Shown here in pieces: positions 1-59,035 of a stretch of DNA of 64,000 bases. The translations under genes and the position numbers were made by a program. This stretch comes from an uncultured virus (IMG/VR IMGVR_UViG_3300037067_013436) (Duplodnaviria > Heunggongvirae > Uroviricota > Caudoviricetes). The stretch lies in the IMG/VR virus record IMGVR_UViG_3300037067_013436; one strand, 5' to 3'. A model generated the notes under the pieces. The model did no database searches, was not told the DNA's origin, and worked only from the letters and a program-made list of their open reading frames with translations. Position 1 is the stretch's first letter. The number at the start of each line of letters is the position of its first letter.

Positions 1-765
1 ATATTCACCATATCCTAATACGCCAGTATTTCTTTCTGGTTGTCTGGTGGTGCTTGTGCTATTATTCGCGTTAATGGTGGAGTCATGATAGTCGCCAGCT
101 ACACCAGTCCCTATTTCATCGAGATGCCATGCCCCTTTATAATCTGTGCTCCAGGTACTAGCTGCCGCTTCTCCATCTGGTGCATTTGGATTACCGTAGT
201 AAATGTAAAAGTCCGTTGGCTCTGTGTGGCTGATGAGCGGGATCTGTACCCAAAAGACAGCAGTGACGGCTGAGCCATTCCCACCAGACCAATATTCACG
301 TTCGTAATTCAACAAAGTAACGCCGTCAACTGCACTGAATCTGATGTCGTACCCAGTAGCCAGCGCCGTTGTCATATCAACATCAGCGTTTATTTTGACA
401 CAGAGTGGAAAATTGACCAGATCATCAGCGCCGACGTTTGTGTTGTCGATGGTGATTCGTTTGCGGTATTTCCAGTAATATCTCCAAACTGGTAGGCCAG
501 AAAACGAGCTGGAATATAAATTCAACGCTTGGTATGTGTCGATATCTGAGAGTGTGGAATAGCCGACACTATCGATCAGGCCAACAAACCATTTGGAATA
601 TTGTGCTCCATCATGAAAATTGGCATCGAGGATACTGTCTTTACCAGCATTTAGAACGCCGTTTGGGATTCGGTAGGAATTAATTACCTTCCCGTGGCGT
701 AAATGCTCGACGAAGAATTCACCTCTCGGCCTAACGGAATTTTCAGCACTCGACTGTGTTTTCAT
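1..765 (-). CDS. Partial (3' end outside window) virion protein: N-terminal domain paralogous to 12833..13369, then DUF2341-like domain leading into a LamG-like region
   Basis: Absent from the ORF track because it has no stop in the window. Manual translation from ATG 765: MKTQSSAENSVRPRGEFFVEH...WKYRKRITID...NFPLCV...GYDIRFSAVDGVTLLNYERE...FWVQIP...FYIYYGNP...WHLDE, which are DUF2341/LamG-type motifs. Confidence 0.8.
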   Translation of the reverse strand, partial: MKTQSSAENSVRPRGEFFVEHLRHGKVINSYRIPNGVLNAGKDSILDANFHDGAQYSKWFVGLIDSVGYSTLSDIDTYQALNLYSSSFSGLPVWRYYWKYRKRITIDNTNVGADDLVNFPLCVKINADVDMTTALATGYDIRFSAVDGVTLLNYEREYWSGGNGSAVTAVFWVQIPLISHTEPTDFYIYYGNPNAPDGEAAASTWSTDYKGAWHLDEIGTGVAGDYHDSTINANNSTSTTRQPERNTGVLGYGEY

Positions 766-781
766 AATATAAATTTGTCAT

Positions 782-2206
782 TTAGAGCTTGTTGTAATGC
801 CTTGACAGGCAGAAATCAACCGGCACGTCATCCAGTGCGTAACCAATTTTCACGATCGTTGTGGCGGTGAATGGTATTCCATAGAGAATACCGCTCGGAG
901 CCAAGATTACGCCAGCCCATTTTGTGGCACCAGAACCAAGAGCTCCGAAAGTTGCAGCTGTATCGTTTGTTGGGTCGATTCTCAGTACTGTGGCTATACC
1001 TGTGCTATGTGGTGGAGCATAAATCATACCGTTCGGAGCCAATGCCCCAGCCATCCATTTATATGTTGTAGCACCAAGAGCACCGAAATAAGTGGCTGTA
1101 TCTGTTGTTGTATCGATCTTCAAGAATGTTGCGGCGCTACACGGTATTCCGTAAATCATTCCATTTGGTGCTAGAACTCCATTATTCCATTTTGCTGCAC
1201 TAGCACCAAGACTACCAAATGTCGTAGCCGTATCTGTATCTGGATCGATCTTTAGGACTGTTGCACTTGTATAAGGTGTACCATAAATGCATCCATTTGG
1301 AGCGAGACAACCGCCGACCCATTTTAATCCGGCACCGAGACTACCAAATGTTGTAGCTGTGTCTGTAGTCGGATCGATCTTCAAGACTGTTGTGCTGTTG
1401 CACGGAATGCCATAAATCATACCATTCGCAGCCAAAACCGCACCCGCCCAATCGCTAGCACCAGCGCCGATCCCATCGGCAAATGTCGTTGATGTGTCCG
1501 TGGCCGGATCGATCTTCAAAATTGCGGTGCTGTCAGTAAAAGGGACGGCATAGATGTAACCGTTAGGAGCGAGCACACCACCATACCATTTTGCATTACC
1601 GGCATAGGTATCAAACGTCGTTGCCGTATCTGTGGTTGGATCGATCTTTAAGATCGAGTTTGATGCGTACGGAATACCATAAATGTAACCATTCGTTGCT
1701 AGTACACCTCCAAACCATTTATTTCCACCTGCTAATGACCCAAATACTGTGGCAACTTGATTAAAGCATGCCGCATTTGCTTCAGCTCTAATATTGATAG
1801 CTTGTCGTGTTTGAGTCCAAGCTAGGCTATTAGTATCCCATAGTGGAAAGTCGCCGTGGTTTACAACATCAACGTCAGTCAATTTTTGTATTGTACCGGA
1901 CTTCACAACCATTGGCTTTTCATATTCTGGTGCAGCCGCATCTACGAGAGGGCTGGCGATTTGACCTAACACTAACGTATTCGATCCATCTAAGTCGTAA
2001 TATGGCTCTGCTGTCAATATTTCAATGACTTGTCTGGTAGCTCGTGTCGTCCCATAAAGATATGGCGGTAAAGCATTGCCACCGCTTATCAGAACTTCTG
2101 TGATTTGTCTCGTGGCTCGCGTCGTCCCATACGTAAACGATGGCAAAACGTTGCCAGAGACCAAAACTTCCATTATTTGACGTGTGACTCGTGCTGTGCC
2201 AGCCAT
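782..2206 (-). CDS. Repeat beta-propeller protein (putative receptor-binding/fibre tip) with three N-terminal RxTRQxxEVL repeats
   Basis: About seven ~43-aa repeats KWxGGxLAPNGxIYxxPxxxxxxLKIDPxTDTATTFG; paralog of 2209..3630 and 13457..14590. Confidence 0.75.
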   Translation of the reverse strand: MAGTARVTRQIMEVLVSGNVLPSFTYGTTRATRQITEVLISGGNALPPYLYGTTRATRQVIEILTAEPYYDLDGSNTLVLGQIASPLVDAAAPEYEKPMVVKSGTIQKLTDVDVVNHGDFPLWDTNSLAWTQTRQAINIRAEANAACFNQVATVFGSLAGGNKWFGGVLATNGYIYGIPYASNSILKIDPTTDTATTFDTYAGNAKWYGGVLAPNGYIYAVPFTDSTAILKIDPATDTSTTFADGIGAGASDWAGAVLAANGMIYGIPCNSTTVLKIDPTTDTATTFGSLGAGLKWVGGCLAPNGCIYGTPYTSATVLKIDPDTDTATTFGSLGASAAKWNNGVLAPNGMIYGIPCSAATFLKIDTTTDTATYFGALGATTYKWMAGALAPNGMIYAPPHSTGIATVLRIDPTNDTAATFGALGSGATKWAGVILAPSGILYGIPFTATTIVKIGYALDDVPVDFCLSRHYNKL

Positions 2207-2208
2207 GA

Positions 2209-3630
2209 TTAAAACCTATTGAAATGCCGAGATAAACAGAAATCTAAAGGAACGTCATCGAGATCGCTACCAAGCTTCAATATTGTTGTGGCTCCAAAAG
2301 GGATACCATATATAATGCCGCTTGGTGCTAATATCATACCGGTAAATTTGTAATCTTCAGCGGCAAGCGCTCCGAAAGTGGTAACAATATCAGTCGTTGG
2401 ATCGATCTTCAATACCTGCAATATTGAAGAGTAGTATGGAGCGCAGTAGATCATTCCGTTTGGCGCTAGAGCACCAGTCCTCCATTTATATGTTGTTGTA
2501 CCGAGACTGCCAAATGTCGTTGCCGTGTCTGTCGAAGGATCGACTTTTAGAACCGTCGCACTTGAATATGGAACTCCGTAGATACAGCCACTTGTGGCCG
2601 ACATACCACCAAACCATTTGAATGTCCCAGTTAATGATCCGAAAGTCGTTGCCGTGTCTGTCGAAGGATCGACTTTTAGAACCGTTGTGCTTGAATATGG
2701 AATTCCGTAGATGCAACCGTTTGGAGCGAGACAACAACCCACCCATTTTGAACCAGCACCAAGACTACCAAAGGTTGTGGCCGTGTTGGTTGTTGGGTCG
2801 ATCTTTAAAATAGACGTGTTGTTACATGGGACACCATAAATCATGCCGTTGGCCGCTAGTACCGCACCGGACCAGTCGCTAGCACCGGTACCGATCCCAT
2901 CAGCAAATGTTGTTGACGTATCGGTGGACGGATCGATCCTTAGAATAGCAGTGCTAGTAAATGGCACTGCATATATGTAACCATTAGGAGCTAGTACACC
3001 GCCACGCCATTTCGCACTACCAGCATAGTCGTCGAAGGTAGTCGCTGTATCTGTGGTCGGATCGATTTTCAATATTGAAGTACTGGTATATGGTATGCCA
3101 TAAATCATACCGTTTGGTGCTATTACACCGCCCGCCCATTTATTGCCACCAGTGCTAAAACTTCCGAATGTTGTTGCGATTTGATTAAAGCAAGCTGCAT
3201 TTGCTTCCGCTCTGACATCGATTGCCTGCCGTGTCTGTGTCCAGGCTAGGCTATCCGTCGACCAAAGCGGGAAGTCGCCGTGATTTACAACGTCTGTATT
3301 AGGTAGTGTTTGTATTCTGCCAGATCCAGATACAAGTGGTGCTTGATATTCTGCTGTAGTAGCGACCGACAATGGGCCAGCCAATTGACTAAGCACTATC
3401 GTGCTTGATCCATTGAGGTCATAATATGGGTCTGCGGTCAGGACTTCTATTATCTGTCTGCAAGCTGATGATGAGCCATAAGTATATGGAGGCAACGCAT
3501 TGCCGCCGCTGACTAGAATTTCAACGATCTGTCTGGTCGTTCTCGATGTTCCGTAAGTATATGGCGGTAGTATATTGCCAGTCACCAAAACTTCAATTAT
3601 TTGTCTCGTAGCACGTGCTGTTCCAGCCAT
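2209..3630 (-). CDS. Repeat beta-propeller protein, paralog 2
   Basis: Same repeats and C-terminus (DDVPxDFCLSRHxN) as 782..2206. True start is ATG 3630 (MAGTARAT), overlapping the upstream TAA (TAATG). Confidence 0.75.
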   Translation of the reverse strand: MAGTARATRQIIEVLVTGNILPPYTYGTSRTTRQIVEILVSGGNALPPYTYGSSSACRQIIEVLTADPYYDLNGSSTIVLSQLAGPLSVATTAEYQAPLVSGSGRIQTLPNTDVVNHGDFPLWSTDSLAWTQTRQAIDVRAEANAACFNQIATTFGSFSTGGNKWAGGVIAPNGMIYGIPYTSTSILKIDPTTDTATTFDDYAGSAKWRGGVLAPNGYIYAVPFTSTAILRIDPSTDTSTTFADGIGTGASDWSGAVLAANGMIYGVPCNNTSILKIDPTTNTATTFGSLGAGSKWVGCCLAPNGCIYGIPYSSTTVLKVDPSTDTATTFGSLTGTFKWFGGMSATSGCIYGVPYSSATVLKVDPSTDTATTFGSLGTTTYKWRTGALAPNGMIYCAPYYSSILQVLKIDPTTDIVTTFGALAAEDYKFTGMILAPSGIIYGIPFGATTILKLGSDLDDVPLDFCLSRHFNRF

Positions 3631-4646
3631 TACATCACCCTCACTCCAATCAATGCCGATCCTAAACCAGCTATCGTCCAAGGTTGTCCGGTGTTTGGAT
3701 CTATCGTACTGATATGTCGCACGTCGCCATAAGACGAGCTACTTAGTACTGTATCAGGCCCTAATTCAGTGACGCCGTTTGATACGATAGGTGCTTCGAA
3801 CACAATCGATACGCCTGCAGACAAAGCAACAGTAGAATTAACCTGTAATCCTAAAATAGTACCAGAACCAACTAGTGTTGGATATTCATATAGATCTGTG
3901 TTTGCTTGTGTGCTAGTTGAGACGTAATCTGTAGCAGCATTTGGCGGGTTTTCATCCACAAGATTATAGTGTGTTGAGCCGGTACTGGGTGCCCATTGTA
4001 CTGTCGCCGTATCGGCCTTAGGAAAAATCCCGACGACATTGCAGACACCTTGAAAGTTATTCAAGCTGGTGCCGGTACCATCACATATATAATAATCATC
4101 AATATAACCATATTCAAGATAGATTCTAACTCGATCACAAAAAGCGTCAGCACCATTCTTCGTATCTATGCCGGATATCGACACGACTGTTGCGCCATTA
4201 ATGCGTACTTCTACAGCTCCGCTTGTGTCGTGACAGAACGACTTGACTTCAACATAATACCACGTATTGGTTAATAAAGTTGACGCTAATGTTGTTGTAC
4301 TTAATGTAGTAGAACCGCGTTTAAGGACGACGGTTGATGGTACTGTTGGGTTAAATGTTACGTTTATACCTGCAGTCGCATTATCGACAAACGAAATAGC
4401 TCCAAAAGCATTTGTCTGTAGAAAGTAAAACGCACAGCCAACAATGAGTGTTGGATCAATTGTCAAGGCTGGCGTAATAAAGCTCCAATTTATGTAGGCC
4501 GAATTCCAGCAATAACCAGAGACTCGGCCAGCAGCAATATATAAGTTACTAGCGGAAGAATCGGGATATCTATATTGTAATGACGCATTTGCAACACTGC
4601 CACTTGTCCCGTATCCTTCGAATCCATCTATCCAGATCAATGCCAT
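3630..4646 (-). CDS. Tandem-array paralog 9 (concanavalin/LamG-like beta-sandwich virion protein)
   Basis: MALIWIDGFEGYG...WYYVEVK...VEVRING...DDYYICDG...THYNLVDENP...GVRVM. Confidence 0.75.
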   Translation of the reverse strand: MALIWIDGFEGYGTSGSVANASLQYRYPDSSASNLYIAAGRVSGYCWNSAYINWSFITPALTIDPTLIVGCAFYFLQTNAFGAISFVDNATAGINVTFNPTVPSTVVLKRGSTTLSTTTLASTLLTNTWYYVEVKSFCHDTSGAVEVRINGATVVSISGIDTKNGADAFCDRVRIYLEYGYIDDYYICDGTGTSLNNFQGVCNVVGIFPKADTATVQWAPSTGSTHYNLVDENPPNAATDYVSTSTQANTDLYEYPTLVGSGTILGLQVNSTVALSAGVSIVFEAPIVSNGVTELGPDTVLSSSSYGDVRHISTIDPNTGQPWTIAGLGSALIGVRVM

Positions 4647-4656
4647 TTTAACCTCA

Positions 4657-5673
4657 CTACATAACTTTTAGACCGATTTGTGCTTCTGCAAGATTTGCTG
4701 CTGTCCAACCTGCTCCTGTATTCGGGTCTGTTTCACTTATTCGGCGTATTTCTCCAAAAGTAGTACTTGTTAATGTCGTATCGACACCAAGGTCTATTAC
4801 GCTATTTGATGAAATTGGTGCTTCGATAATTATTCCTATTCCAGATGCAAGTTTGCAGATGGTCGAAATTTGAATCCCGATTATAGTGTTCGCTATGCTC
4901 AGCATCTGATAATTATATAAGTCTATCTGTGCTTGTGTGCCGCTAGAGACGTAATCTGTCGTACTGTATGGATTTTCGTCGACTAGATTATAGTGCGTTA
5001 AACCAGTGCTTGGAGTCCATTGGACGGTTGCGGTGTCAGCTTTTGGTAATAATGGAAGTATCTTACAGACGCCCTGAAAATCGTTTGTAGTTGTACCAGA
5101 ACTGTCGCAGATGTAAAAATCATCGTACCAGCACCAATTAGATGATGAGAGTCTGACCTTATTATGGCACAGGTTTGTTCCAGCTTGTGTATTGATATCT
5201 GTAAGTGATATAATTGAAGTACCATTTATTCTTATTTCCACAGTCCCAGCAGTAGGATGACAGAACACCTTAAGCTCGAAGTAGTACCAAGCGCCAGTCT
5301 GTAATGCTGGAACGATGTTAGTAGTATTAATGACTGTACCACCTAGCTTCACTACTATAGTCGATGTAGGAGCAGTCGCACTAATAACTATATTCAAGCC
5401 GATGACTGCAGTATCTAGAAACGTTAGCGTTGCTGTGGTAGTGGTACCTTCGAAGTATAATGCTATGCCCGTAATCAGTGTTTGGTCGCCTGTTAATACG
5501 GGCGTCGTAAATGAGTTGGTATAGGATTGCATACTGTAGCCAGTTGATCGACCGGCTTTTAAATAGCAATTGCTAGTACTAGAGCCAGGATATCTGAAAG
5601 TTAAACTAGAAGACGGCGTACCACCTACTGTCACGCCATAACTCTCAAATCCGTCTATCCAAAGCAGTGCCAT
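4657..5673 (-). CDS. Tandem-array paralog 8
   Basis: Same conserved motifs as the other eight copies. Confidence 0.75.
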   Translation of the reverse strand: MALLWIDGFESYGVTVGGTPSSSLTFRYPGSSTSNCYLKAGRSTGYSMQSYTNSFTTPVLTGDQTLITGIALYFEGTTTTATLTFLDTAVIGLNIVISATAPTSTIVVKLGGTVINTTNIVPALQTGAWYYFELKVFCHPTAGTVEIRINGTSIISLTDINTQAGTNLCHNKVRLSSSNWCWYDDFYICDSSGTTTNDFQGVCKILPLLPKADTATVQWTPSTGLTHYNLVDENPYSTTDYVSSGTQAQIDLYNYQMLSIANTIIGIQISTICKLASGIGIIIEAPISSNSVIDLGVDTTLTSTTFGEIRRISETDPNTGAGWTAANLAEAQIGLKVM

Positions 5674-6714
5674 TTACATCACCCTCACGCCTATCTGTGC
5701 TGCGTTCAATCCAGCCGCCGTCCATGGTTGATTTGTGTTCGGATCGAATTCACTTATATGTTGATATTCATAATAGCTGCTACTGGTTAGAGTGTAATCG
5801 GGGCCGAGATCAGTCGCCCCATTTGATACAATAGGCGACTCAAGAATAATAGAATCACCGGCAGATAACGATGCCTCTGTGTTAAGCTGAATACCAAGAA
5901 TTTCACCATTACCATCGTAATTAATCAAGCTTGGGTAAGTAAAAAGATCTGTATCAGTTTGTGTACTGCTAGAAATATAAGTAGTATTGCCATCTGCTGG
6001 ATTTTCATCTACTCTGTTATAATGAGTGGTGCCTGAATTTGGTGTCCAATCTACAATCTCAGTGTCTGCACTTGGAAATAAACCTATTATTCTGCATATA
6101 CCTTGAAACCCATTTACTCCAGAGCCAGTGGCATCACAGATATAGAAGTCATCTAAAAATTGTTTCAGATATAATGATATTCTGACCTTATCGTGATATG
6201 TATTTGCACCAGCTTGAGTATTAATACCGGCTAGCAGTATAATTGTTTTACCATCTATCCGTACCTCTACTGTACCGCTTGTTGGATGACAAAACACTTT
6301 CATTTCCAAATAGTACCAAGTATCAAGCAGCAACGTGCTGCTAGAATATGTTGCGAGTGTCGTGTCACCAAGACTTAATGTTATGATGGATGGATAGTTG
6401 TGAGGATGAATCGTTATATTAATGCCTTTAGTAGCTCCATCAAATAATTCAATCGTTGTTATAGCTTCGACAACCTGCCACGATAACGCACATCCGATTG
6501 TTAGTGTTGGGTCGATTGTCAGAGCAGGTGTTGTTATGGCACTTGTTGCACCAGTAGTAAAATGATAGCAGCAATATCCACCAACCCGACCAACTCCGAC
6601 ATACCAGCGATCGTCTTGTACACCGTAGCGTCTTTGTTGCAATAGAGACGTTATGGCTGAAGAGATCTGTGGCGGGCCATATCCCTCGAATCCGTCTATC
6701 CAAAGCAATGCCAT
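5674..6714 (-). CDS. Tandem-array paralog 7
   Basis: Same conserved motifs. Confidence 0.75.
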   Translation of the reverse strand: MALLWIDGFEGYGPPQISSAITSLLQQRRYGVQDDRWYVGVGRVGGYCCYHFTTGATSAITTPALTIDPTLTIGCALSWQVVEAITTIELFDGATKGINITIHPHNYPSIITLSLGDTTLATYSSSTLLLDTWYYLEMKVFCHPTSGTVEVRIDGKTIILLAGINTQAGANTYHDKVRISLYLKQFLDDFYICDATGSGVNGFQGICRIIGLFPSADTEIVDWTPNSGTTHYNRVDENPADGNTTYISSSTQTDTDLFTYPSLINYDGNGEILGIQLNTEASLSAGDSIILESPIVSNGATDLGPDYTLTSSSYYEYQHISEFDPNTNQPWTAAGLNAAQIGVRVM

Positions 6715-7734
6715 TTACATCACCTTTATTCCAAATTGCGCTGCAGCTAAGCCTTCTATTGTCCAAGGTTCTCCTGTGTTGGGGTCTACTTCACTAATAT
6801 GTCTCAATTCTTGATAGCTAGAGCTTGAATAAACAGATTTTGGTCCTAAATCGACTATATCATTCGATACGATCGGGGCCTCAATAATCACTGATGTACC
6901 ACTATTCAACATAACCATAGAGCTTATTTGTATTCCAAGAATAGGATCGGTCCTAATTATACTTGGGTAAGAGTATAAATCCTCTTGTGCTTGCACATTA
7001 CCTAATACATAACCTGCGGTATCAGGTGGATTTTCATTCACCAGATTATAGTGTGTTATCCCAGTGCTTGGTGTCCACTGGTTTGTTTCTGTGTCAGCAT
7101 CCGGAAATAAACCGATAATTGAGCATATACCCTGAAAATCGTTGCATGCAGTTCCAGAGCCATCACAGATGTAAAAGTCGTCTGTCCACGAATGTGGTGT
7201 CATGTCGAATCTAACTATATTGTGGAAAGCATCTATACCTGCTTGTGTATTGATATCAGCAATAGACACGATTGTTGTGCCATTTAGACGAACTTCAATG
7301 CTACCGTTTGTTGGATGGCATACCACTTTCATTTCGATATAGTACCATACATTCATTAAAAATGTGAAATCGGTGAAAGTGTCGACAACAGATCCTCCTA
7401 CTTTTACAACGATAGTTGAGGGGCTACTTGCACTTAGTCTAATATTGACGCCTTGCTGTGAATTATCATAAAACGAAATAATCTGAGTATAAGTTGTGGC
7501 GTCCCACATGAATGCGGCACCGAAAATAAGCGTGGGATCTTCTGTTAATGGTGGCGTCCAAAATCCAGTAACAGTACTATTTGCTGTGTTATGGTATGAA
7601 AATCCAGATAACCGTCCGACACCCACACCGGCATATGCTCCGCCATAGACGCCATAGCCACGCTGCGAGAGCTTGGTGTCGAGAGCACCAGTCGTCCCGT
7701 ATCCTTCAAATCCGTCTATCCAAAGTAAAGCCAT
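6715..7734 (-). CDS. Tandem-array paralog 6
   Basis: Same conserved motifs. Confidence 0.75.
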   Translation of the reverse strand: MALLWIDGFEGYGTTGALDTKLSQRGYGVYGGAYAGVGVGRLSGFSYHNTANSTVTGFWTPPLTEDPTLIFGAAFMWDATTYTQIISFYDNSQQGVNIRLSASSPSTIVVKVGGSVVDTFTDFTFLMNVWYYIEMKVVCHPTNGSIEVRLNGTTIVSIADINTQAGIDAFHNIVRFDMTPHSWTDDFYICDGSGTACNDFQGICSIIGLFPDADTETNQWTPSTGITHYNLVNENPPDTAGYVLGNVQAQEDLYSYPSIIRTDPILGIQISSMVMLNSGTSVIIEAPIVSNDIVDLGPKSVYSSSSYQELRHISEVDPNTGEPWTIEGLAAAQFGIKVM

Positions 7735-8765
7735 TACATCACCCTCACGCCTATTTGTGCTGCGTTCAGTCCATCTACCGTCCAGACAGAACCGGTGTGC
7801 GGATTTGTCGTACTGATATGTTTAAAGTCCGTATAGGTGCCGCTCGTCAGCGTATAGTCAGGACCTAAATCGGTAGTCCCATCCGATACTACCGGTGTTT
7901 GTAGAACAATCGAAGTACCATCCGATAGCATCGCTTGTGTGTTCAATTGGAATCCAATGATCGTACCAGTACCGATTAGATCTGGATATGTGTAAAGATC
8001 GGTATTGGTTTGAGTACTGCTAAAAATATAATCACTGGTATTTGGTGGGTTGCTATCAACGAGGTTGTAGTGTGTGCTCCCAGAACTTGGTGTCCATTCG
8101 ATAGTGTCTGTATCGGCGTTCGGTAGTAGGCCGACCACTTTACAAACGCCCTGTAAGTTGTTGACTGTCGTACCAGAACCATCACAAACATAAAAATCGT
8201 CAAGATAATTAAATTGGGCACCAGTTAAGCTCACTTTATCGTGATATGCATGAGCACCAGTCTGTGTGTTAATGCCTGTTAGTGATATGACCGTAACTCC
8301 ATCTATCCGTACCTCTACTGTACCACTCGTAGGATGGCAGAACACTTTCATTTCTAGGTGATACCACTCACTATATCGCATAGTAAAAGAAGAATATGTA
8401 GTGATTGTACTTGCGCCAAGATTTAATGTGAGTGTCGACGGTGCAGTCGGTCTCAATATAGCATTTATCCCAAGTGTCGCTCCATCATAGAAATTAATCG
8501 ATGATGTGTTATTGCCAAAAAACATAAAAGCACAACCTGCTATCAATGTCGAATCTGTTGTTAGTGCTGGAGTAGTGAATATCACCTTATTTAGGCTGTC
8601 ATGTGCGACGTTATTACGTATGCTATAACCAAACATTTTCCCTGCTGCGATATAAGTGTAGCTAGAAACGTCTGAGTAACCACGTGCGGCTAAAATAGAA
8701 GAGCTGACATAGCTACCAGTAACCACTCCGTATCCTTCGAATCCATCTATCCAAAGTAATGCCAT
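7734..8765 (-). CDS. Tandem-array paralog 5
   Basis: Same conserved motifs; TAATG overlap with the next gene. Confidence 0.75.
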   Translation of the reverse strand: MALLWIDGFEGYGVVTGSYVSSSILAARGYSDVSSYTYIAAGKMFGYSIRNNVAHDSLNKVIFTTPALTTDSTLIAGCAFMFFGNNTSSINFYDGATLGINAILRPTAPSTLTLNLGASTITTYSSFTMRYSEWYHLEMKVFCHPTSGTVEVRIDGVTVISLTGINTQTGAHAYHDKVSLTGAQFNYLDDFYVCDGSGTTVNNLQGVCKVVGLLPNADTDTIEWTPSSGSTHYNLVDSNPPNTSDYIFSSTQTNTDLYTYPDLIGTGTIIGFQLNTQAMLSDGTSIVLQTPVVSDGTTDLGPDYTLTSGTYTDFKHISTTNPHTGSVWTVDGLNAAQIGVRVM

Positions 8766-9788
8766 TTACATTGCCTTTATTCCAATTTGGGCTGCTGCCA
8801 AGTCCGCAACCGTCCATGCTGTTCCCGTATCTGGATTTGTCATACTGATATGGCGAGCGTCGTAATAAGATGAGCTTAAAATTTGGGTATCTGGTCCAAA
8901 ATCGATTATCCCGTTTGACACTATTGGTGACTCGATAATAACGGATGTACCTGATGGCAGACTCGCTTGTGTGTTTACTTGGATGCCAATGATTGTAGTA
9001 TCGCCAGTCAGGGAAGGATACGAATATAGATCTGTATCCGATTGTGTGCCAGTCGAGACGTAATCTGATGTATTTCGCGGATTTTCATTTACCAAATTGT
9101 AGTGAGTCGTTCCGGTACTCGGTGCCCATTGTATTGTGGCTGTATCAGCATTTGGAAAGATACCAATAACCTTACAGACTCCCTGGAAATCGTTACAGGT
9201 CGCACCAGTGCCATCGCAGACGTAAAAATCGTCACATTGACTGTGATAACTCCCTCCCAAGCTGACCATATTATAATAGGGCTCAGCTCCCGTTTGTGTA
9301 TTTATACCACTTAGTGAAATGATTGTCGTGCCGTTTAGGCGTACTTCAATTGTACCGTCAGTTGGATGACAAAGTACTTTAACTTCTAGATAATACCAGA
9401 TATTTGTATTAATTAAGACTTGGAAACCAGAAAAGGTTTCAAGCGCAGTATCGCCCAAGTTCGCCGTAATACTTGATGAAGAGGCTGGATTAAATACGAC
9501 ATTCACACCCAATGTGCCGTTATAATAAAAACTGATACCAGCGTAGCGATCACTAAAGGGAAAATAAAAAGCACAGCCAGCTATCAGCGTAGAATCAGTG
9601 GTCAGTGCTGGAGTTGTAAGCAAACTCCCAAAGTTGGATATATTTGGCTTCGCGCCATATCCAAACATTCTTCCAGTAGTTAAGTAAGTAGAGCTATTAA
9701 CATATGAATAGCCTCTTGCTGGTATGTAGGCATTGCTACCGATCGTTGTGCCGTATCCTTCGAAGCCTTCGATCCAAAGTAGTGCCAT
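8766..9788 (-). CDS. Tandem-array paralog 4
   Basis: Start corrected to ATG 9788 (MALLWIEGFEGYG), TAATG overlap. Confidence 0.75.
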   Translation of the reverse strand: MALLWIEGFEGYGTTIGSNAYIPARGYSYVNSSTYLTTGRMFGYGAKPNISNFGSLLTTPALTTDSTLIAGCAFYFPFSDRYAGISFYYNGTLGVNVVFNPASSSSITANLGDTALETFSGFQVLINTNIWYYLEVKVLCHPTDGTIEVRLNGTTIISLSGINTQTGAEPYYNMVSLGGSYHSQCDDFYVCDGTGATCNDFQGVCKVIGIFPNADTATIQWAPSTGTTHYNLVNENPRNTSDYVSTGTQSDTDLYSYPSLTGDTTIIGIQVNTQASLPSGTSVIIESPIVSNGIIDFGPDTQILSSSYYDARHISMTNPDTGTAWTVADLAAAQIGIKAM

Positions 9789-10813
9789 TACATCACCCTC
9801 ATTCCGATATGTGCTGCTGTGAGATCGGCTATTGTCCACGGTTGGTTTGTATTGGGGTCTATTTCGCTTATGTGTCTTATCTCTACATAGCTTGCACTAG
9901 ACAACAGATAATCCGGGCCAAGATCGGTTATACCATTTGACACAATCGGTGCTTCGACAATTATTGACGCCCCAGCCGATAATATGATCTGTGAGGTTAC
10001 TTGTAGGCCGATAATGGTGCCGGTACCAATCAATGACGGATAATGGTAGAGATCGGTGTCGCCCTGCGTGCTTGTGTAAACATAATCTGTTGTATTCGCA
10101 GGATTTTCATCAATGAGATTATAGTGTGTTGTACCCGAACTCGTGGTCCATTGTACTGTCTCGGTATCTGAATCTGGAAACAGACCCAGGACTCTACAAG
10201 CACCTTGAAAATCATTGCATGTACCTGTACTATCACATATATAAAAATCATCAAAGCGCTGTGATTGATATGCTGAAACCTTAACCATATTATGCCAAGC
10301 ATTCGTACCAGACTGCGTATTGATACCTGTTAACGATATAATAGTGACACCATTTAAACGGACTTCTGCAGTACCGCTAGTTGCATGACAAAAAACCTTA
10401 AATTCGATGTAGTACCATGTACCGAGTATGAATGTGAAATCTGTGAAAGTTGCTAACGTAGTAGCTCCGCGTTTAAGCACAATTGTTGATGTTGGGGTAG
10501 TTGGAGTCAATGTTATATTTATGCCTAGTGTCGCATTATCATATAATGCAAGTGTTGATGTAGAAATTGCGTTTAATGCAGTATAAGCACAACCAACTAT
10601 GAGCGTCGAATCGGATGTCAGTACTGGTGTCTGAAATGTAGCTGTTGCTGTGCTATCGGTGTGACCGAATGCACATCCTGTTATTCTGCCCACGGCAAGT
10701 TCCATATAACTGCTGCCTGATGCAGTATATCCACGGACTCCCAATCTAGCATATAATCCGGCTGTGCCAACAGGGCCGTATCCTTCAAATCCGTCAATCC
10801 AAAGTAAAGCCAT
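9788..10813 (-). CDS. Tandem-array paralog 3
   Basis: Start corrected to ATG 10813 (MALLWIDGFEGYG), TAATG overlap. Confidence 0.75.
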   Translation of the reverse strand: MALLWIDGFEGYGPVGTAGLYARLGVRGYTASGSSYMELAVGRITGCAFGHTDSTATATFQTPVLTSDSTLIVGCAYTALNAISTSTLALYDNATLGINITLTPTTPTSTIVLKRGATTLATFTDFTFILGTWYYIEFKVFCHATSGTAEVRLNGVTIISLTGINTQSGTNAWHNMVKVSAYQSQRFDDFYICDSTGTCNDFQGACRVLGLFPDSDTETVQWTTSSGTTHYNLIDENPANTTDYVYTSTQGDTDLYHYPSLIGTGTIIGLQVTSQIILSAGASIIVEAPIVSNGITDLGPDYLLSSASYVEIRHISEIDPNTNQPWTIADLTAAHIGMRVM

Positions 10814-11826
10814 TATATCGCCTTTATCCCAATTTGTGCTGCGTTTAGACCGTCTATAGTCCATGCAGAACTTGTATATGGATCTGTAGTGCTTATATGC
10901 CGATAATCGGCATATGAAGCACTCGTCAGTGTTGTATCAGGCCCAATTTCAGTGGTTCCGTTTGATATGATTGGTGTTTGTAGGATAATCGACGTTCCAG
11001 CAGATAATCGTGCTTGCGTGTTTAACTGCAAGCCCTTGATCGTACCTGTACCAATTAGATGAGGATAATCATATAGATCCATCAACGTTTGTGTGCTCGT
11101 ATAGACATAATCGGTATCACCATTTGCCGGATTATCGTCTACGAGACTGTAGTGAGTAGATTCTGCACTCGGTGTCCACTGCACTGTATCTGTATCACCG
11201 CTTGGCAATAAACCAACGACTTTGCAAATGCCTTGGAAATCGTTGCATGTCGATCCAGAGCCGTCGCAGACGTAGAAGTCGTCAACATACGTATTTGTGG
11301 CAGCGTTGAAATTAAGTTTGTTATGATAGTCATGAGCACCAGCTTTCGTATTAATGCCGGTGATCGATATTATCGTTTTATTGTCTATTCGTACTTCAAC
11401 GGAACCGCTAGACGCATGACAGAACACCTTCATTTCGATATAATGCCATTTCGGCATAGTAGAAAACGACGAGTCCGAAGCGATCGTAGAATTGCCAAGT
11501 CTAACTGTCACTGTTGCTGGCGTACCTGGCTGAAACGTAACGTTCATGCCGTACGTTCCGTCGTCATACATTCCAAGGTTGATGTAATTACTAGAGCCAA
11601 AATAAACAGCACAACCGAATATGAAGGTAGAATCAGTTGTCAATGCTGGCGTTATTAGCACATTAGATTGACCTACGTTAAAATATAAGCAATAGCCGAT
11701 TTTGTTGCCTATGCCAATATAATAACTGCCGCCTGTGTTACCATAACCACGTGCAGCTAATAGACTAGAAGCGATACCATCGGTTCCGCCGTATCCTTCG
11801 AATCCATCTATCCAAAGTAGTGCCAT
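10813..11826 (-). CDS. Tandem-array paralog 2
   Basis: Same conserved motifs. Confidence 0.75.
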   Translation of the reverse strand: MALLWIDGFEGYGGTDGIASSLLAARGYGNTGGSYYIGIGNKIGYCLYFNVGQSNVLITPALTTDSTFIFGCAVYFGSSNYINLGMYDDGTYGMNVTFQPGTPATVTVRLGNSTIASDSSFSTMPKWHYIEMKVFCHASSGSVEVRIDNKTIISITGINTKAGAHDYHNKLNFNAATNTYVDDFYVCDGSGSTCNDFQGICKVVGLLPSGDTDTVQWTPSAESTHYSLVDDNPANGDTDYVYTSTQTLMDLYDYPHLIGTGTIKGLQLNTQARLSAGTSIILQTPIISNGTTEIGPDTTLTSASYADYRHISTTDPYTSSAWTIDGLNAAQIGIKAI

Positions 11827-12821
11827 TACATTACCCTTACACCGATCTTGGCTGCTGCTAGGGTATCAACTGTCCACGCTTCACCTGTTCCTGGATCAAC
11901 TGTACTGGTGCGTCGAATATCAACATATCCAGCACCACTTGTCTGGATATCATCACCAACGTCTGTCACGCCATTAGATAATATCGGCGATTCAATCAAG
12001 ACAGAAGATCCTGACTGAACTGATACTTGCGTGTTTATCTGTAATCCTAAGATTGTGCTGTCGCCAGTTAAACTCGGATATCCATATAAATCGGTTTGGG
12101 TTTGCGTTCCACTCGAAACGTAATCCGTCGAATTAGCTGGATTTTCATCAACCAGATTATAATGCGTTGTGCCTGTGCTTGGTGTCCATTGTATTGTTTC
12201 TGTGTCTGAATTCGGAAATATGGCGGCTATTTTGCAAACTCCCAAGAGATCATTAGCCGTGTCTCCAGACCCATCACAAATATAAAAATCATCTATTCGA
12301 GCAGTTGAGCCACCTGTTACTCTGACAATGTTGTAGTAAGCCTCGGTACCAGTTTGAGTATTGATGTCAGTTATGAGCGTAATTGTAGTGCCATTTATTC
12401 GGACTTCTATGCTGCCATTTGTTGGATGGCATATACACTTCATTTCTATATAGTACCAGGGATTAGAAAGAGTGAACGACGTATTTGTGTCGAGAGTAGT
12501 ACCACCGAGTTTGGTTGTTAAAGACGTTGACGTTATCAAAATGTTTGGACCTTGAACGCCATTGTAATAAAACTGTAGTCCTATACCTGAACCAACCTGA
12601 AAAGCGATACCAGAAATAAGTGTGCTATCTGTTGTTAGGATTGGCGTTATCAATGTGTTGCCATTTGATATATTACAATATAGGCTATAACCATAAAGTC
12701 TGCCGATAGCAATATTTGGGCTACCGCCGACAGTCGTGTAGCCGCGAGCATATATTAAAGCTGCTGCGACACCGCCGGTTCCGCCGTAGCCCTCGAATCC
12801 ATCAATCCAAAGTAAAGCCAT
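11826..12821 (-). CDS. Tandem-array paralog 1
   Basis: ATG at 12821; same conserved motifs. Confidence 0.75.
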   Translation of the reverse strand: MALLWIDGFEGYGGTGGVAAALIYARGYTTVGGSPNIAIGRLYGYSLYCNISNGNTLITPILTTDSTLISGIAFQVGSGIGLQFYYNGVQGPNILITSTSLTTKLGGTTLDTNTSFTLSNPWYYIEMKCICHPTNGSIEVRINGTTITLITDINTQTGTEAYYNIVRVTGGSTARIDDFYICDGSGDTANDLLGVCKIAAIFPNSDTETIQWTPSTGTTHYNLVDENPANSTDYVSSGTQTQTDLYGYPSLTGDSTILGLQINTQVSVQSGSSVLIESPILSNGVTDVGDDIQTSGAGYVDIRRTSTVDPGTGEAWTVDTLAAAKIGVRVM

Positions 12822-12832
12822 CACACTACCCT

Positions 12833-13369
12833 TTACGCATTTACGGTATAGACGACTCTAAGTAAGCTTCCAATGAACACTGGGATGTTGCCGGCAGTGA
12901 ACAGAGCGGTTGCCCAAAGAATGCTGTTGTCGCCTGTGTGGTCGTTTTTGAACTGTGCATTCGGAGAGCCGCCAACTACAAACAAACCTTTGACGATGCC
13001 AACAGCAGTACATGTAAATAAAGCTTTGGTCGTGTTCGTTGTAGCTTGACCAGACGCCGCATCAGTGACCCAGATCGGCCTAGTCGTCGCATCATCGGCG
13101 TTATTTGTATCTGTATAGCTGTCAAATTCGTCCCAGCCGTTAGTCAGATTGATATTCCGATAAACATCAGTAGCGGCTAATGCGGAATAGCCAACATTGT
13201 CGATCAGACTAAGATACCAAGCGGTGATCTTCGGAGTATCATTCCATCCGATGTCGAGGAATCTATTCTTACCCTCGTTTGTTGTATCGTTCTTGCACGG
13301 ATAGATGCCTATCAACTCGCCATTATACCAGTGCTCAACGGAAAATCTGCCGCGTAAATGAAGATCCAT
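12833..13369 (-). CDS. Putative virion structural protein (178 aa)
   Basis: RGRFSVEH...NEGKNRFLD...WYLSLIDNVGYSAL is clearly paralogous to the N-terminus of the 1..765 gene. Confidence 0.7.
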   Translation of the reverse strand: MDLHLRGRFSVEHWYNGELIGIYPCKNDTTNEGKNRFLDIGWNDTPKITAWYLSLIDNVGYSALAATDVYRNINLTNGWDEFDSYTDTNNADDATTRPIWVTDAASGQATTNTTKALFTCTAVGIVKGLFVVGGSPNAQFKNDHTGDNSILWATALFTAGNIPVFIGSLLRVVYTVNA

Positions 13370-13456
13370 GGCAATTTCTTCTTTTAGTAGTAGTACGAAA
13401 TGGTTTACGATAAATTTGAATTATCGTTAACCATACCTACTAAACGGCAAAGTACA

Positions 13457-14590
13457 TCAGTACTTGTTGAAATGCCGAGATAAGCAGAAATCGAGTGGAA
13501 CGTCATCTGCTTCCGTGCCAATTTTTATAACCGTCGTTCCAGCGTTATTCGGCACAGCATAAATGATCCCATTTGGAGCAAGAGCACAACCGCTCCATTT
13601 TGCACCAGTTCCTAAGCTACCAAAGGTGACAACTGTATCAGTTGTCGGATCGATCATTAAAATAGTTGTTATAGAAGCACTATTCGTAGCGGCATAAATC
13701 ATTCCATTTGGAGCTAGAGACCCGCCGAACCACTTGTATGTAGTGGTGCCGAGCGAGCCGAAGGTCGTCACCGTATCTGTAGTAGGATCGATTTTCAACA
13801 CTGCTGCATTACTGGACGGTATTCCATAAATCATTCCATTCGGAGCCAGCACAGCACCAGACCATTTATAAGTCCCCGTGACCACAGAACCAAACGTCGT
13901 TATTGTATCAGTTGTTGGGTCGATCTTTAATATAGTCGTTGCGGTATATGGAATAGCATAAATCATGCCATTTGGAGCTAGGCAACCACCATACCAATTA
14001 TCGGCACTTGCTAAATCACCGAATATCGTATATGTATCGGTCGTAGGGTCGATCTTTAGCACACCAGCATAATAACGTGGTGGCGAATAAATCATTCCAT
14101 TTGCAGCAAGAATACTGCTTACAAATTTAGAGCTGCCGCTAAAAGTTCCGAAGGTTGTGCATGTGTCCGTCGTTGGGTCGATCTTTAATATAGCATCCGA
14201 TCCATATGGTGCAGCATAAATCATGCCGTTTGGCGCTAAGCAACCACCGGCCCATTTATATGTCGTTGCTCCTAGGTCGCCGAATGTGGTAATGGCATCT
14301 GTGGTTGTATCAATCTTAAGTACTACTGCACTTGTAGACGGTATTCCATAGATGCATGAGTTAGGTGCCAATACAGCACCTTGGAATCCGGTAGCGGTAG
14401 AAATCTGAGAGGTCGTTCTTTGAGAACAAGCATAATTTAATCCGACCCGCGCACAAACGGCTTTCTGTACTTGCTGCCATGCTAGCTTATTCACCTCCCA
14501 TGCAGGGAAGTCGCCATGATTCAGCATATCTCCGCTACTTAACGAGCTTATAGAGTTAGCTTTTTCGACTAGTGGTTTTTGATATGCCAT
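13457..14590 (-). CDS. Repeat beta-propeller protein, paralog 3 (lacks the RxTRQxxEVL N-terminal repeats)
   Basis: NHGDFP..W motif, LAPNGMIY/LKIDPTTD repeats, C-terminal DDVPLDFCLSRHFNKY. Confidence 0.75.
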   Translation of the reverse strand: MAYQKPLVEKANSISSLSSGDMLNHGDFPAWEVNKLAWQQVQKAVCARVGLNYACSQRTTSQISTATGFQGAVLAPNSCIYGIPSTSAVVLKIDTTTDAITTFGDLGATTYKWAGGCLAPNGMIYAAPYGSDAILKIDPTTDTCTTFGTFSGSSKFVSSILAANGMIYSPPRYYAGVLKIDPTTDTYTIFGDLASADNWYGGCLAPNGMIYAIPYTATTILKIDPTTDTITTFGSVVTGTYKWSGAVLAPNGMIYGIPSSNAAVLKIDPTTDTVTTFGSLGTTTYKWFGGSLAPNGMIYAATNSASITTILMIDPTTDTVVTFGSLGTGAKWSGCALAPNGIIYAVPNNAGTTVIKIGTEADDVPLDFCLSRHFNKY

Positions 14591-14650
14591 AACAAAATAA
14601 TTTTGACATATAACAAGCCTGTCGTCCGCTGCTCGGAAAGTGCATCCGGA

Positions 14651-16378
14651 CTAAATTGATTGCCAGGTATCGCCGTTGAACCGCAAGAACGTCGTACCGT
14701 TATACCACTCGTCGCCCCAAATCGGGCTTCTTCCACCGAGTAGAATTATCAAACGCGGAAGAACATATTCCTCGTAGAATGCGTTTGCTGCTGTGTCAGT
14801 GTCGGGAGGTAGCTTCGTGTAATCGATACAAAGTTGGACCGTTCGACGTACAAGACCACCAGTATTACCATATCGGCTAATACCTTCAACGGGGATGATT
14901 CCCGTCTGCGAGTCGAGATCGATCGTGTTACCAAGACCTTGATCTCGCTCGCAGACGAACCGGTTTTCCTCGGAGGGAGGAATTGGTGTGGTAAGGCTGG
15001 ATGTTGACCCAACCATTGCTCTGCATTGACCGTCCGTAGGCGTCCATCTCGGCACTCGGCTAATCGAGAAGGAACTCAATCTGGTGGCGGTTTGCAGGAA
15101 TGTTGCAGACTGTTCCGGCAGAAGTGATTCGAAAGCATTGAAGAAGAGGTCAACGACGTTCGACGTCGAACCCCACAAGCTGCTCAGAACCACGTGTCCC
15201 CTACCGAAATCCTGGAAGTAAAGTTCGAAATCAGTTCCAGATTGTAGTAGAAGGTCGTTGATTGGTTCAATCGCCACGATGTCGCCAGTTACCATATTCC
15301 GCATCAAGTCCAATCGTGCAAATTCGATTGGGTCTGGCGACGGGCTTAATCTGGTGACGTTATGCGTTGCGAAGAAGAACCGCAATTGATCGTTTGTCGT
15401 TCCGACCGGTTGGATTCTACTGATCCACACCGGAAAGAATGTACCACTTGTGTCGCCGGTCGGTTCATCTCCAGCGGGTGCCACGATGTTGAACTCGCGG
15501 AATATCGCGGCTGGGATTGTTACGACGAATGTGCCGCTTGACGTCCTCGTGGCTTCGGCACCGAAAGGGAAGTTGAATGCATTTAACCACGACGACGCAT
15601 CGCTTGCGATATTCGGGATGGCATTATTGCAACTATCAACTAACATACCAGTGCCGTGACTTACCGGTATCGGAGAATAGCTGTTGATTTCGGACGGCGT
15701 AGCGCCAGTATTTGCGATCTGGTAGACTGTCGGTAGTATTGATCCAGGCGCGACAAGATTGTAGAACGCCTGGACAAGTGGGTCGTTCTGCGGTAGAGTT
15801 CGGAAGGTAATGAATCCGTCGATAGTCGCCGTTTCGCTAATATCGATGTTTATCGGCTCTTCCGTGCATACGGTCAACCGCGATCTCTGATAGGTCAACT
15901 CGCTGTCAATCGTATAGTCGGCGGTGAACAGAGCGATCTCGGTCGGATTGTCGCCTTTGACAGCCGTGAAGATCAAGCGCAGAATGCCATTATAGGTGCC
16001 GGTTGTGCCTGGATTAGTACCAGTTTCGCGTTTGATTTTCGCCAGTCTAAAGTCATGCCAATCCTTTGGCGTCGACATATGCAAGTCCCAAATCCAGCCA
16101 TTCGGCAACTGGGCATTGGTAGTCGAATTGACTACTATTGCTTGGATAAGGAATGGGAAAATTGCCTCGTGACCGATGCTGATGCTCAGCGAATCGAGGG
16201 TCTTCGCAAGGATGAGTTGTCGGAGAGTGATGTCCGCCATCGGGCGATTCATTGCTTCGTAGTATACTGGGTCTGTTGGCGTGATCCAGCGAACGTTCAG
16301 GGTCGAATCAGCGGTTAGTGCCTGGAAAAGATTTCCAGGTGCAACCGTTGGGACCAGGCTGGGATTGATTGTCGGCAT
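14651..16378 (-). CDS. Hypothetical, probable virion structural protein (575 aa)
   Basis: Long ORF with GGAGAG RBS, located in the structural block. Confidence 0.6.
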   Translation of the reverse strand: MPTINPSLVPTVAPGNLFQALTADSTLNVRWITPTDPVYYEAMNRPMADITLRQLILAKTLDSLSISIGHEAIFPFLIQAIVVNSTTNAQLPNGWIWDLHMSTPKDWHDFRLAKIKRETGTNPGTTGTYNGILRLIFTAVKGDNPTEIALFTADYTIDSELTYQRSRLTVCTEEPINIDISETATIDGFITFRTLPQNDPLVQAFYNLVAPGSILPTVYQIANTGATPSEINSYSPIPVSHGTGMLVDSCNNAIPNIASDASSWLNAFNFPFGAEATRTSSGTFVVTIPAAIFREFNIVAPAGDEPTGDTSGTFFPVWISRIQPVGTTNDQLRFFFATHNVTRLSPSPDPIEFARLDLMRNMVTGDIVAIEPINDLLLQSGTDFELYFQDFGRGHVVLSSLWGSTSNVVDLFFNAFESLLPEQSATFLQTATRLSSFSISRVPRWTPTDGQCRAMVGSTSSLTTPIPPSEENRFVCERDQGLGNTIDLDSQTGIIPVEGISRYGNTGGLVRRTVQLCIDYTKLPPDTDTAANAFYEEYVLPRLIILLGGRSPIWGDEWYNGTTFLRFNGDTWQSI

Positions 16379-16415
16379 ATGTTCTCTCCATGTTAAACAA
16401 TATTATCTTTGATTC

Positions 16416-17854: not shown

Positions 17855-17862
17855 TATTATCC

Positions 17863-36066: not shown

Positions 36067-36140
36067 TCTTCCTTCATCGTATCTACCAACCACTTATCTT
36101 TCATAGGCAAACATATAACGAACAAACGCATAGAGATCTC

Positions 36141-47696: not shown

Positions 47697-47975
47697 ATGA
47701 ATACAATATATGACACCAGGATAAATTATGCCAGCGGTGGGGTTGTATGGACTTTCGACATGCCATTCGAACATCCTCCAGTGGTGTGTATAGGAGTGCA
47801 GCTAAATAACCTGCCTGACAGCATATATCCCATATCGCACAAAATTGTTAGTTTGACAGCAACATCGGTGACGATCAAGGTCTATAAGGTTGAATTGACG
47901 GATCTTAGAGACCTTCTCTTTAGTGAGTGTGCGACCAATGATGTCGTCGTTCACATAACGGCTGAGGGAGAATAA
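47697..47975 (+). CDS. Small beta-sandwich protein (H-type-lectin/gp53-like), homologous to an internal domain of the baseplate protein
   Basis: F..PP.V.IGVQL.NLPDSIY...S.TIKVYK...FSEC.T.DVVV; GAGGGTGA RBS. Confidence 0.6.
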
Positions 47976-55825: not shown

Positions 55826-55826
55826 T

Positions 55827-57320: not shown

Positions 57321-57370
57321 GGGCTAATCCGCAATCAAAAATCTTGTAGCCCCAATAAGAGGACAAGAAC

Positions 57371-58975: not shown

Positions 58976-59004
58976 CGCCAAGCGGCGTAAAACTAGATTC
59001 TTAC

Positions 59005-59035
59005 CAGCACGGCCCGCAATTCGCGGGCCGTGCTG
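59005..59035 (+). terminator. Intrinsic terminator-like hairpin
   Basis: Perfect 13-bp GC stem CAGCACGGCCCGC/GCGGGCCGTGCTG followed by TTCTGT. Confidence 0.7.

Follow-up and report, generated by a model that had tools for sequence, protein, structure and literature searches.

In a 64,000-nucleotide stretch of DNA from an uncultured virus of the Caudoviricetes (IMG/VR record IMGVR_UViG_3300037067_013436), two beta-propeller genes that directly follow an array of nine tandem phrog_2448 genes each begin with three short peptide repeats. This stretch, hereafter the window, covers bases 57667-121666 within one 388,105-bp contig that we read as belonging to a jumbo phage. We show that the repeats are the local version of a widespread and previously undescribed tag, tightly linked to phrog_2448 genes. 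Because the tag sits so regularly beside genes for predicted concanavalin A (ConA)-like proteins, we propose that it is a multivalent docking tag joining a carrier protein, here the two propellers, to those proteins, an interpretation in which our confidence is about evenly balanced. An initial sequence-only reading of the window had gone further and assigned single peptides to single array proteins; the specific link between peptide and array stood up when other genomes were compared, and the counting rule attached to it did not.

Results

Two propeller genes share an N-terminal repeat module

Gene A (2209..3630, minus strand; 473 amino acids, aa) is read from an ATG at 3630 down to 2209, and its product, a repeat module followed by a DUF6923 beta-propeller, begins MAGTARATRQIIEVLVTGNILPPYTYGTSRTTRQIVEILVSGGNALPPYTYGSSSACRQIIEVLTADPYY. 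Gene B (782..2206, minus strand; 474 aa) starts after a gap of 2 nt, is read from 2206 to 782 and begins MAGTARVTRQIMEVLVSGNVLPSFTYGTTRATRQITEVLISGGNALPPYLYGTTRATRQVIEILTAEPYY. Both proteins open with three units built on the core (A/T)R(V/A/T)TRQxxE(V/I)L, which span residues 3-26, 27-51 and 52-70 (24, 25 and ~19 residues) and are joined by P-x-Y/F-x-Y-G; in the third unit of gene A, ACRQ replaces TRQ. On the DNA, the units of gene A lie at 3553-3624, 3478-3552 and 3421-3477, within an N-terminal extension at 3352..3630 that ends in a linker, and those of gene B lie at 2129-2200, 2054-2128 and 1997-2053, within an equivalent extension, likewise ending in a linker, at 1928..2206. The six cores are nearly alike (RQIIEVL, RQIVEIL, RQIIEVL, RQIMEVL, RQITEVL and RQVIEIL), and a search of all six frames of the 388,105-bp contig with the pattern [TCSA]RQ[IVLM].[ED][IVL]L returned seven matches, six of which are the units of A and B.

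The limits of the module are set by shorter relatives in the same genome. A 377-aa propeller paralog at 13457..14590 (minus strand; translation and Pfam) starts with MAYQKPL, equivalent in position to residue ~94 of the long forms, and has no repeats; three more short paralogs just outside the window (genome 53423-56830) start likewise and also lack them. The long forms therefore carry an N-terminal extension of 93 aa. Proteins A and B are 73% identical overall, and by a manual count on the alignment the level of conservation over the first 66 residues is about the same as over the remainder. Tandem Repeats Finder detected no DNA-level repeat at this region of either gene, from which we conclude that the copies are old and are conserved at the protein level. 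A profile made from 15 tag N-termini of other phages, with the window sequences excluded (A4), matched gene B at E 1.2e-10 and gene A at E 9.8e-9 among 8620 open reading frames (ORFs), showing that the repeats are a real, conserved motif. At the junction with the array, the stop codon of the last array gene and the start codon of gene A overlap in TAATG (3628..3632): the DNA reads GTG ATG TAA TGG, with TAA at 3632-3630 and ATG at 3630-3628. Three N-terminal repeats in both propeller genes, none in the 13457..14590 paralog, and coupling of the first propeller gene to the last array gene through TAATG had all been described from the sequence alone; translations and DNA bear out the repeats, the MAYQKPL start agrees with their absence from the short paralog, and the overlap can be read directly in the DNA.

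Behind the extension, Pfam DUF6923 scores are 68.4 bits for B, 54.6 for A and 53.9 for the 13457..14590 paralog, against a gathering cutoff of 27. In an AlphaFold2 (AF2) monomer model of gene A, residues ~150-456 are all-beta, with block means of 81-95 in the predicted local distance difference test (pLDDT). Residues 1-149 fall below 50, residues 1-128 have no secondary structure (block means 25-39), and the 93-aa extension itself scores 25-32. Since residues 1-128 are unstructured in the monomer, the tag seems to need a partner, and the model argues weakly against a self-contained monomeric fold; either a docking peptide or a homotrimeric stalk would fit such a model. The putative tag strand has conserved positions on both of its faces. 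The genome encodes six beta-propeller paralogs (782-3630, 13457-14590 and genome 53423-56830), all of which conserve a head segment, YQKPL...NHGDFPxW...WxQTRQA, and a C-terminal tail, DDVPLDFCLSRHFNKF. The conserved C-terminal 17 residues of gene A are also modelled with low confidence, and both the head segment and the tail, low-confidence in AF2, are candidates for additional attachment sites.

The repeats belong to a widespread family

The wider family to which the window units belong is unnamed and has the consensus unit LRVTRQxVEVLxxGxGK, repeated with a 17-residue period. The units of A and B represent this motif lengthened by 7-8 residues in the linker, an (N)(A)LPPYTY insert, and they depart from the 17-residue period and Gly-rich linker of the family in being 24-25 aa long. 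In other respects they conform: the tandem core [LA]R[VA][TS]RQxhEhL is present in three copies in each protein, and the genes lie directly downstream of a phrog_2448 gene, A overlapping its stop codon and B beginning 2 nt after A. The linker-expanded variant is common to the window, the jumbo-phage contigs L002 and L003, and the protein P0003. In L002, three array genes precede a single long propeller with three repeats. The array genes of L003 also number three, and the long propeller after them has 3.5-4 repeats and a first ATG located within the first motif; another cluster of this contig comprises two array-like genes and, after them, a propeller in which the three LRVTRQQIEVL units are short and the PYTYG linker is absent.

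A phmmer search with residues 1-95 against 1.84 billion representatives found seven proteins at E <= 1e-3, namely the query's own fragment, P0003, P0006 and four others; these four proved to be unrelated long repetitive proteins without the motif and were set aside. A word-index homolog search with the same residues gave no match among 838 candidates. P0003 belongs to the same propeller family and has only two repeats, and P0006 has approximately eleven VTRQxVEVLVSG units preceding a phrog_837 minor-tail domain. The tag profile was more productive: it matched at least 118 proteins at E <= 1e-3 in an index of 5.8 billion proteins, none of the 118 carrying an informative name, and the tag is present in well over 100 viral contigs. 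Among GenBank phages, blastn of positions 700-4700 gave no match. tblastn with gene B hit 84 records, and among the matches listed (30 of the 84) every one starts at query residue 151 or later, so that only the propeller is shared with those phages. A 62-aa tag query hit one record by tblastn, an uncultured 595-kb phage (LR756511.1), so that by this search no phage isolate in GenBank has the canonical tag. At 6853-9527 of this locus (L136), a 107-aa frame with three tag units adjoins two array genes and lies on the opposite strand, with overlapping frames. Sequence searches with the tag profile, with P0006 and with the array protein matched no solved structure, and a literature search found no relevant paper on phrog_2448, DUF6923 or the motif (TRQxxEVL, VTRQ).

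Tag and array genes are linked in both directions

The forward scan started from the array. IMG/VR was searched with an array alignment (A2), and 72 loci were taken from the best 80 of 235 tblastn-confirmed matches. ORFs were defined as stop-to-stop frames, array genes were marked with a hidden Markov model (HMM) of A2, and tags were scored with a position-specific scoring matrix (PSSM) of the 11-residue core at a threshold of 6; the background in opposite-strand frames is 0.002 matches per 1000 aa at a threshold of 8. The 72 loci and the window contain 78 array runs, 72 of which have a downstream ORF within the locus. This next ORF starts with at least one motif in 67/72 runs and with at least two in 61/72. 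The reverse scan, in which IMG/VR was searched with the tag profile, yielded 59 loci, approximately half of them on contigs that are absent from the first set as judged by contig names. An array gene ends no more than 250 nt upstream of the tag in 52 of the 56 motif-selected loci that could be evaluated. The protein family encoded just before the window's array, phrog_8123, directly precedes the array run in at least 47 of 74 runs, a lower bound because some frames are over-extended; its link to the array is looser than that between array and tag.

Two further comparisons were made within these loci. In a Mantel (mirror-tree) analysis of 45 dereplicated loci, distances between array proteins correlated with those between tags (r 0.44) and with those between heads (r 0.42), with no difference between the two. 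A search for natural fusions of array domain and tag found none among array-family frames; apparent long N-terminal extensions of some array frames were rejected as out-of-frame read-through in stop-to-stop frames.

Repeat counts do not track the size of the array. The sequence-only reading had noted that trimeric fibres with three peptides per chain would offer 3x3=9 sites for nine paralogs, and had named co-variation of peptide and paralog numbers as the check. Over 54 dereplicated runs there is none (Spearman 0.17, p 0.21), and the two counts are equal in just 11. Tagged proteins have from one to nine repeats; three is the mode (23/54) and occurs with 1, 2, 3, 5 or 9 array genes alike, giving mismatches such as five array genes, or a single one, with three repeats. 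Because of this lack of co-variation, because two tagged genes supply six peptides per set, and because the cores are nearly the same, we regard 3x3=9 as a coincidence, and a pairing of one peptide with one paralog as unlikely.

Array proteins have a predicted ConA-like fold

The nine array genes occupy 3630..12821 on the minus strand and encode proteins of 331-346 aa that start with MALLWIDGFEGYG. The two paralogs tested against PHROGs match phrog_2448 at E 2.8e-28 and 1.7e-32 over 333/335 profile positions, all nine match the HMM of alignment A2 at E <= 1.8e-125, and none has a Pfam family. AF2, run for the last array protein on a 55-sequence alignment, produced a model with a pLDDT of 94.3, in which an N-terminal jelly roll of the ConA-like type is followed by a C-terminal beta-sandwich. 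The top matches in a fold search with this model were lectins, carbohydrate-binding modules (CBMs) and polysaccharide lyases, and ConA-like receptor-binding domains of phage baseplates were matched as well (8zdo_a, Z 16.0; 9n6a, Z 15.5; 5ly8, Z 15.4). Full-length look-alikes, with template modelling (TM) scores of 0.8-0.88, occur in the predicted structures of many phages; one of them is called a 'virion structural protein', an unverified label given by its depositor.

Conservation within the family is uneven. The N-terminal decapeptide MALLWIDGFE is near-invariant, at 0.98 among the nine paralogs and 0.88 majority identity over 55 members, and these first ten residues form the top block, other blocks ranging from 0.25 to 0.69 over the same 55 members; they are our candidate for an interface. 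The paralogs, which share 45-59% pairwise identity, differ most in blocks 2-6 and 8-13, and this divergence looks like ligand diversification. The closest jumbo-phage relatives, L002 and L003, have three array paralogs each as compared with nine here, and on this comparison the nine-gene array is a lineage-specific expansion.

The tag is found on varied cargo and in different genomic contexts

Among 59 dereplicated tails behind the tag, three are DUF6923 propellers, six are DnaT_2, which corresponds in PHROGs to a head-tail adaptor of the Ad1-like type, one is DUF5050, and 49 have no Pfam family; many of the 49 show fibre-like SLxLSQ repeats by eye. The tag is also carried by P0006, the phrog_837 minor tail protein, and by P0222, which has a weak, sub-threshold match to DUF2460. 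The sipho-like contigs L030 and L022 share the order tape measure, phrog_8123, array gene(s), tagged protein, 127-133-aa protein and ~1000-aa protein, and L010 has the same series of gene sizes, a likeness of sizes only. In L070, an array gene and a tagged Ad1-like paralog are situated between an Ad1 adaptor and the scaffold and capsid genes. The array-tag pair thus moves between genomic contexts, being placed after the tape measure and phrog_8123 in the sipho-like contigs and in the head-neck region in L070. Fusion of the tag to an Ad1 paralog (DnaT_2) in a head-neck module was observed at L070 9470-11610 and also in L053, L114, P0110 and P0113; in L070 two Ad1-like genes flank the array gene, which L114 lacks.

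Genes surrounding the array and propellers

Every gene in 1-16400 is on the minus strand, and the order of transcription is the 575-aa protein gene, a short propeller, the 178-aa protein gene, the nine array genes, propeller A, propeller B, a 532-aa gene and three short propellers, the last three lying outside the window. The 575-aa protein (14651..16378) is of unknown family, with no match in Pfam or PHROG, and by synteny it heads the corresponding cluster in L002 and in L003. Positions 12833..13369, immediately upstream of the array, encode the 178-aa phrog_8123 protein, assigned by its PHROG match; in the ESM Atlas it fell in unnamed viral clusters only, one of which has PF23140 on 14% of its members. 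Positions 1..765 contain the 5' part of the 532-aa gene, which continues past the window start and has phrog_8123-like ends around an inserted DUF2341 and LamG-like region, the latter assigned by sequence likeness to LamG regions of P0003. This gene appears to be a derivative of the 178-aa phrog_8123 family in which DUF2341 and the LamG-like region were inserted mid-protein.

The closest relatives of the window are IMG/VR viral contigs of 363,885 and 184,768 bp, and the window encodes HNH endonucleases and glycosyltransferases as well as tail fibres of the collagen-like type. Four tail-fibre-like genes with collagen repeats (2616, 497, 534 and 1450 aa) lie on the plus strand at 47975-63474, where G+C is 53-59% as against ~42-49% elsewhere in the window; the largest has N-terminal NosD/right-handed beta-helix domains. 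Beside the adhesin cluster, 17030-18489 (minus strand) encodes a GT10 fucosyltransferase-like protein and a galactosyltransferase, and 44207-44950 (plus strand) a CMP-sugar-type cytidylyltransferase (CTP_transf_3, E 2.9e-46). By their annotation, these sugar-transferase and cytidylyltransferase genes point to phage-encoded glycan synthesis or modification. Two large ORFs, at 24723-28274 (plus strand, 1183 aa) and 29836-36093 (minus strand, 2085 aa), have no Pfam or PHROG match.

Discussion

We propose that the RxTRQxxEVL units of the window are a linker-expanded form of a short beta-strand tag, LRVTRQxVEVLxxGxGK, and that this tag would physically couple its carrier to the phrog_2448 ConA-like lectins encoded upstream. 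Two propeller heads would in this way be tied to the nine diversified lectins, and together they would make up a composite receptor-binding organ that is multivalent. The tag would be generic for the paralogs, with several equivalent copies, mostly three, providing avidity or bridging lectin subunits, and the nine paralogs would be interchangeable partners that are not individually addressed. The tight adjacency of array and tag, together with the stop/start overlap at the head of gene A, supports a docking tag, and attachment modules usually combine, as is seen here, a constant tag with variable cargo. It is also consistent with docking that only the two propellers following the array carry the tag, four paralogs elsewhere in the genome being without it. 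Direct binding of peptide by lectin, the geometry of their contact, and the identity of the partner mounted on the virion are what we infer from these patterns.

A more general form of the proposal, possible in our view although less so than docking as such, is that tag and lectin make up a portable two-part coupling system, in which a short beta-strand tag would be recognized by a ConA-like lectin. Any virion protein gaining copies of the tag, be it a fibre, a propeller, an adaptor paralog or a minor tail protein, would then join the lectins; and with a tag that is blind to paralogs, a diversifying lectin array could be displayed in changing combinations.

Several observations weigh against a docking tag. 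The adjacency rule is broken in 5/72 forward and 4/56 reverse loci, the reverse exceptions being L114, L125, L126 and one diverged case, L129. In L114 there is a tag-plus-Ad1-like gene and no array gene between it and the Ad1 gene. L125 (5639-6520) and L126 (1320-2201) encode a 290-aa protein made up nearly entirely of repeats (~15 units by eye); no array gene lies within 4-6 kb on either side of it, and the contigs (L009, L065) carry three array genes. The PSSM was trained on the same loci that it scored, some loci are near-duplicates (61 runs remain after dereplication), and the AF2 monomer of gene A rests on a shallow alignment of ten rows, five of them with the extension. Array-like genes also occur without the tag: in phiCbK and in Sphingomonas phage Kharn such a gene is the last tail gene and no motif is present, and in bacterial genome contigs found in an A2 scan, 0/59 evaluable array runs have a canonical motif in the next ORF, the array relatives there being more distant (mostly 23-34% identity). 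The occurrence of array proteins without the tag suggests that they reach the virion independently and may serve as the mount for tagged proteins. Gene adjacency, finally, would also fit co-assembly without direct contact.

Some of these exceptional loci have features of separate interest. The 290-aa repeat protein is a possible pure scaffold. In gamma- and betaproteobacterial contigs, some of the next ORFs, of ~520 aa, begin with spaced ...(V/G)E(V/T)L... units by eye. Within L168-L200 (contigs of, for example, Hahella, Thermomonas, Caldimonas and Tepidicella), a distant array-like gene is followed by a ~520-aa ORF with ...GEVL, ...VETL and ...VEVLRR units and no RQ core; these contigs are probable prophages of cultured Proteobacteria.

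A quite different explanation is that the repeats self-assemble, the strands of three chains intertwining in a short trimeric beta stalk by which the protein would be anchored in the tail tip or baseplate, with the array proteins as non-binding neighbours. The modal repeat number of three (23/54) would suit such a stalk, as would the continuation of most carriers, by eye, into SLxLSQ-type repeats typical of trimeric fibres, the frequent identity of variable positions across the repeats of one protein, as in stacked ladders, and the existence of array relatives without the tag; an unfolded monomer model is predicted here too. A stalk nevertheless leaves the near-constant presence of the array (67/72; 52/56) unexplained, and beta-propellers and Ad1-like domains, which also carry the tag, are not typical trimeric fibres. 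The nearly all-repeat 290-aa protein is hard to read as a stalk, and by a geometric estimate 11-residue strands connected by 6-residue Gly-rich links would build a very wide prism. On balance we consider self-assembly rather unlikely, though it is the chief rival to docking. Strict adjacency and translational coupling would, for their part, suit a co-translational helper, and the array proteins could be assembly factors or chaperones that recognize the tag on nascent fibres or propellers and are not virion parts. We judge this improbable: their fold is that of a ConA-like lectin or CBM, resembling the receptor-binding domains of siphophage baseplates, the nine paralogs have diverged to 45-59% identity, as in ligand diversification, and known fibre chaperone genes lie downstream of their fibre genes.

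Docking in its strictest form, with each peptide a donor strand for one array paralog and trimers supplying 3x3=9 sites, draws on the nine paralogs and three repeats per gene of the window, and L002 happens to have three array genes and three repeats. The counts disfavour it, since repeat and array numbers do not co-vary and two tagged genes would provide 6 or 18 sites instead of 9. The peptides of the window, six in all, are moreover too similar to one another to distinguish nine paralogs, and in the AF2 model the acceptor is not an incomplete immunoglobulin (Ig)-like fold. Of all the explanations weighed here, it is the one that we find hardest to credit.

The host range of phages depends on how receptor-binding parts are mounted and exchanged, and the module described here is a conserved one that has no name, Pfam family or solved structure. 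If the tag binds the lectin, docking would explain how a jumbo phage makes use of nine lectin paralogs and six propellers, would supply an annotation rule for the attachment ends of unknown tail proteins, and would give engineers a small, naturally occurring pair of docking partners with which to exchange the receptor-binding heads of phages. Were there no binding, the linkage would still mark a conserved tail-tip organ, comprising phrog_8123, lectin and tagged protein, that follows the tape measure in many uncultured siphophages.

Among cultured phages, the arrangements that most resemble the tag and array are those of Chi and Delta. Chi gp32-35 match the array HMM (E 1e-17, 1e-34, 4e-35 and 3e-7; L001 7980-14376), and gp36, which follows them, has short N-terminal ...GE(A/V)L... 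units by eye. In Brevundimonas phage Delta, genes 31-33 (L139 6001-9439) are two array-like genes and then a minor tail protein, gp33, in which ARxxHxALxVL units spaced ~17 aa apart are seen by eye at the C terminus, after a Gly-rich domain. The RQ core is missing from the Chi and Delta repeat proteins and the PSSM detects no unit in them, and we would treat both as leads and not as members of the tag family. In the accessible text of PMC10399903, CHI_31 is given as a putative fibre; that of PMC12264135 presents YSD1_29, and not genes of the Chi gp32-36 type, as the known long fibre, and the accessible main text of PMC7385642 does not mention YSD1_30 to YSD1_35.

With respect to the putative acceptor, the array protein shares the fold of its N-terminal domain, over 170-174 aligned residues, with Douge 8zdo, TM4 gp23 (9n6a) and the CBM2 of the J-1 evolved distal tail protein, Dit (5ly8). 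Identity is 6-10%, none of the three matches the array protein by sequence, and numerous unrelated lectins and glycoside hydrolases score alike, so the resemblance is one of fold only.

Three further parallels come from other known systems, the first of which joins receptor-binding proteins (RBPs). In the branched multi-RBP fibres of CBA120, G7C and phiK64-1, as is proposed for the window, side-by-side RBPs combine conserved N-terminal attachment modules with exchangeable heads. Those systems use folded docking domains (T4 gp10-like), whereas here an 11-residue strand motif is repeated one to nine times and the partner would be a ConA-like protein; Pfam and PHROG scans of the window proteins and a Pfam scan of tag carriers gave no match to the branched-RBP docking domains. 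Donor-strand complementation in chaperone-usher pili likewise involves a strand at the very start of a protein, and the tag could similarly complete or extend a beta-sheet of its partner. The acceptor differs, in that the AF2 model (pLDDT 94.3) is a complete ConA-like jelly roll and sandwich without any donor and does not display the incomplete Ig-like, pilin-type fold of the chaperone-usher system; conserved residues lie on both faces of the strand, and each chain has several strands.

A third parallel is the scaffoldin of the cellulosome, which likewise offers several docking sites along one polypeptide, at which carbohydrate-binding or active subunits could be gathered in a mix-and-match fashion. 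Cohesins (~140 aa) and dockerins (~70 aa) are folded domains, neither of which is among the Pfam matches of the window proteins or of 59 tag carriers; the repeat unit described here is, in contrast, a short peptide. If the proposed binding is real, the tag and its lectin would constitute a peptide-based counterpart of cohesin-dockerin that serves host recognition, and a natural tag-and-catcher pair.

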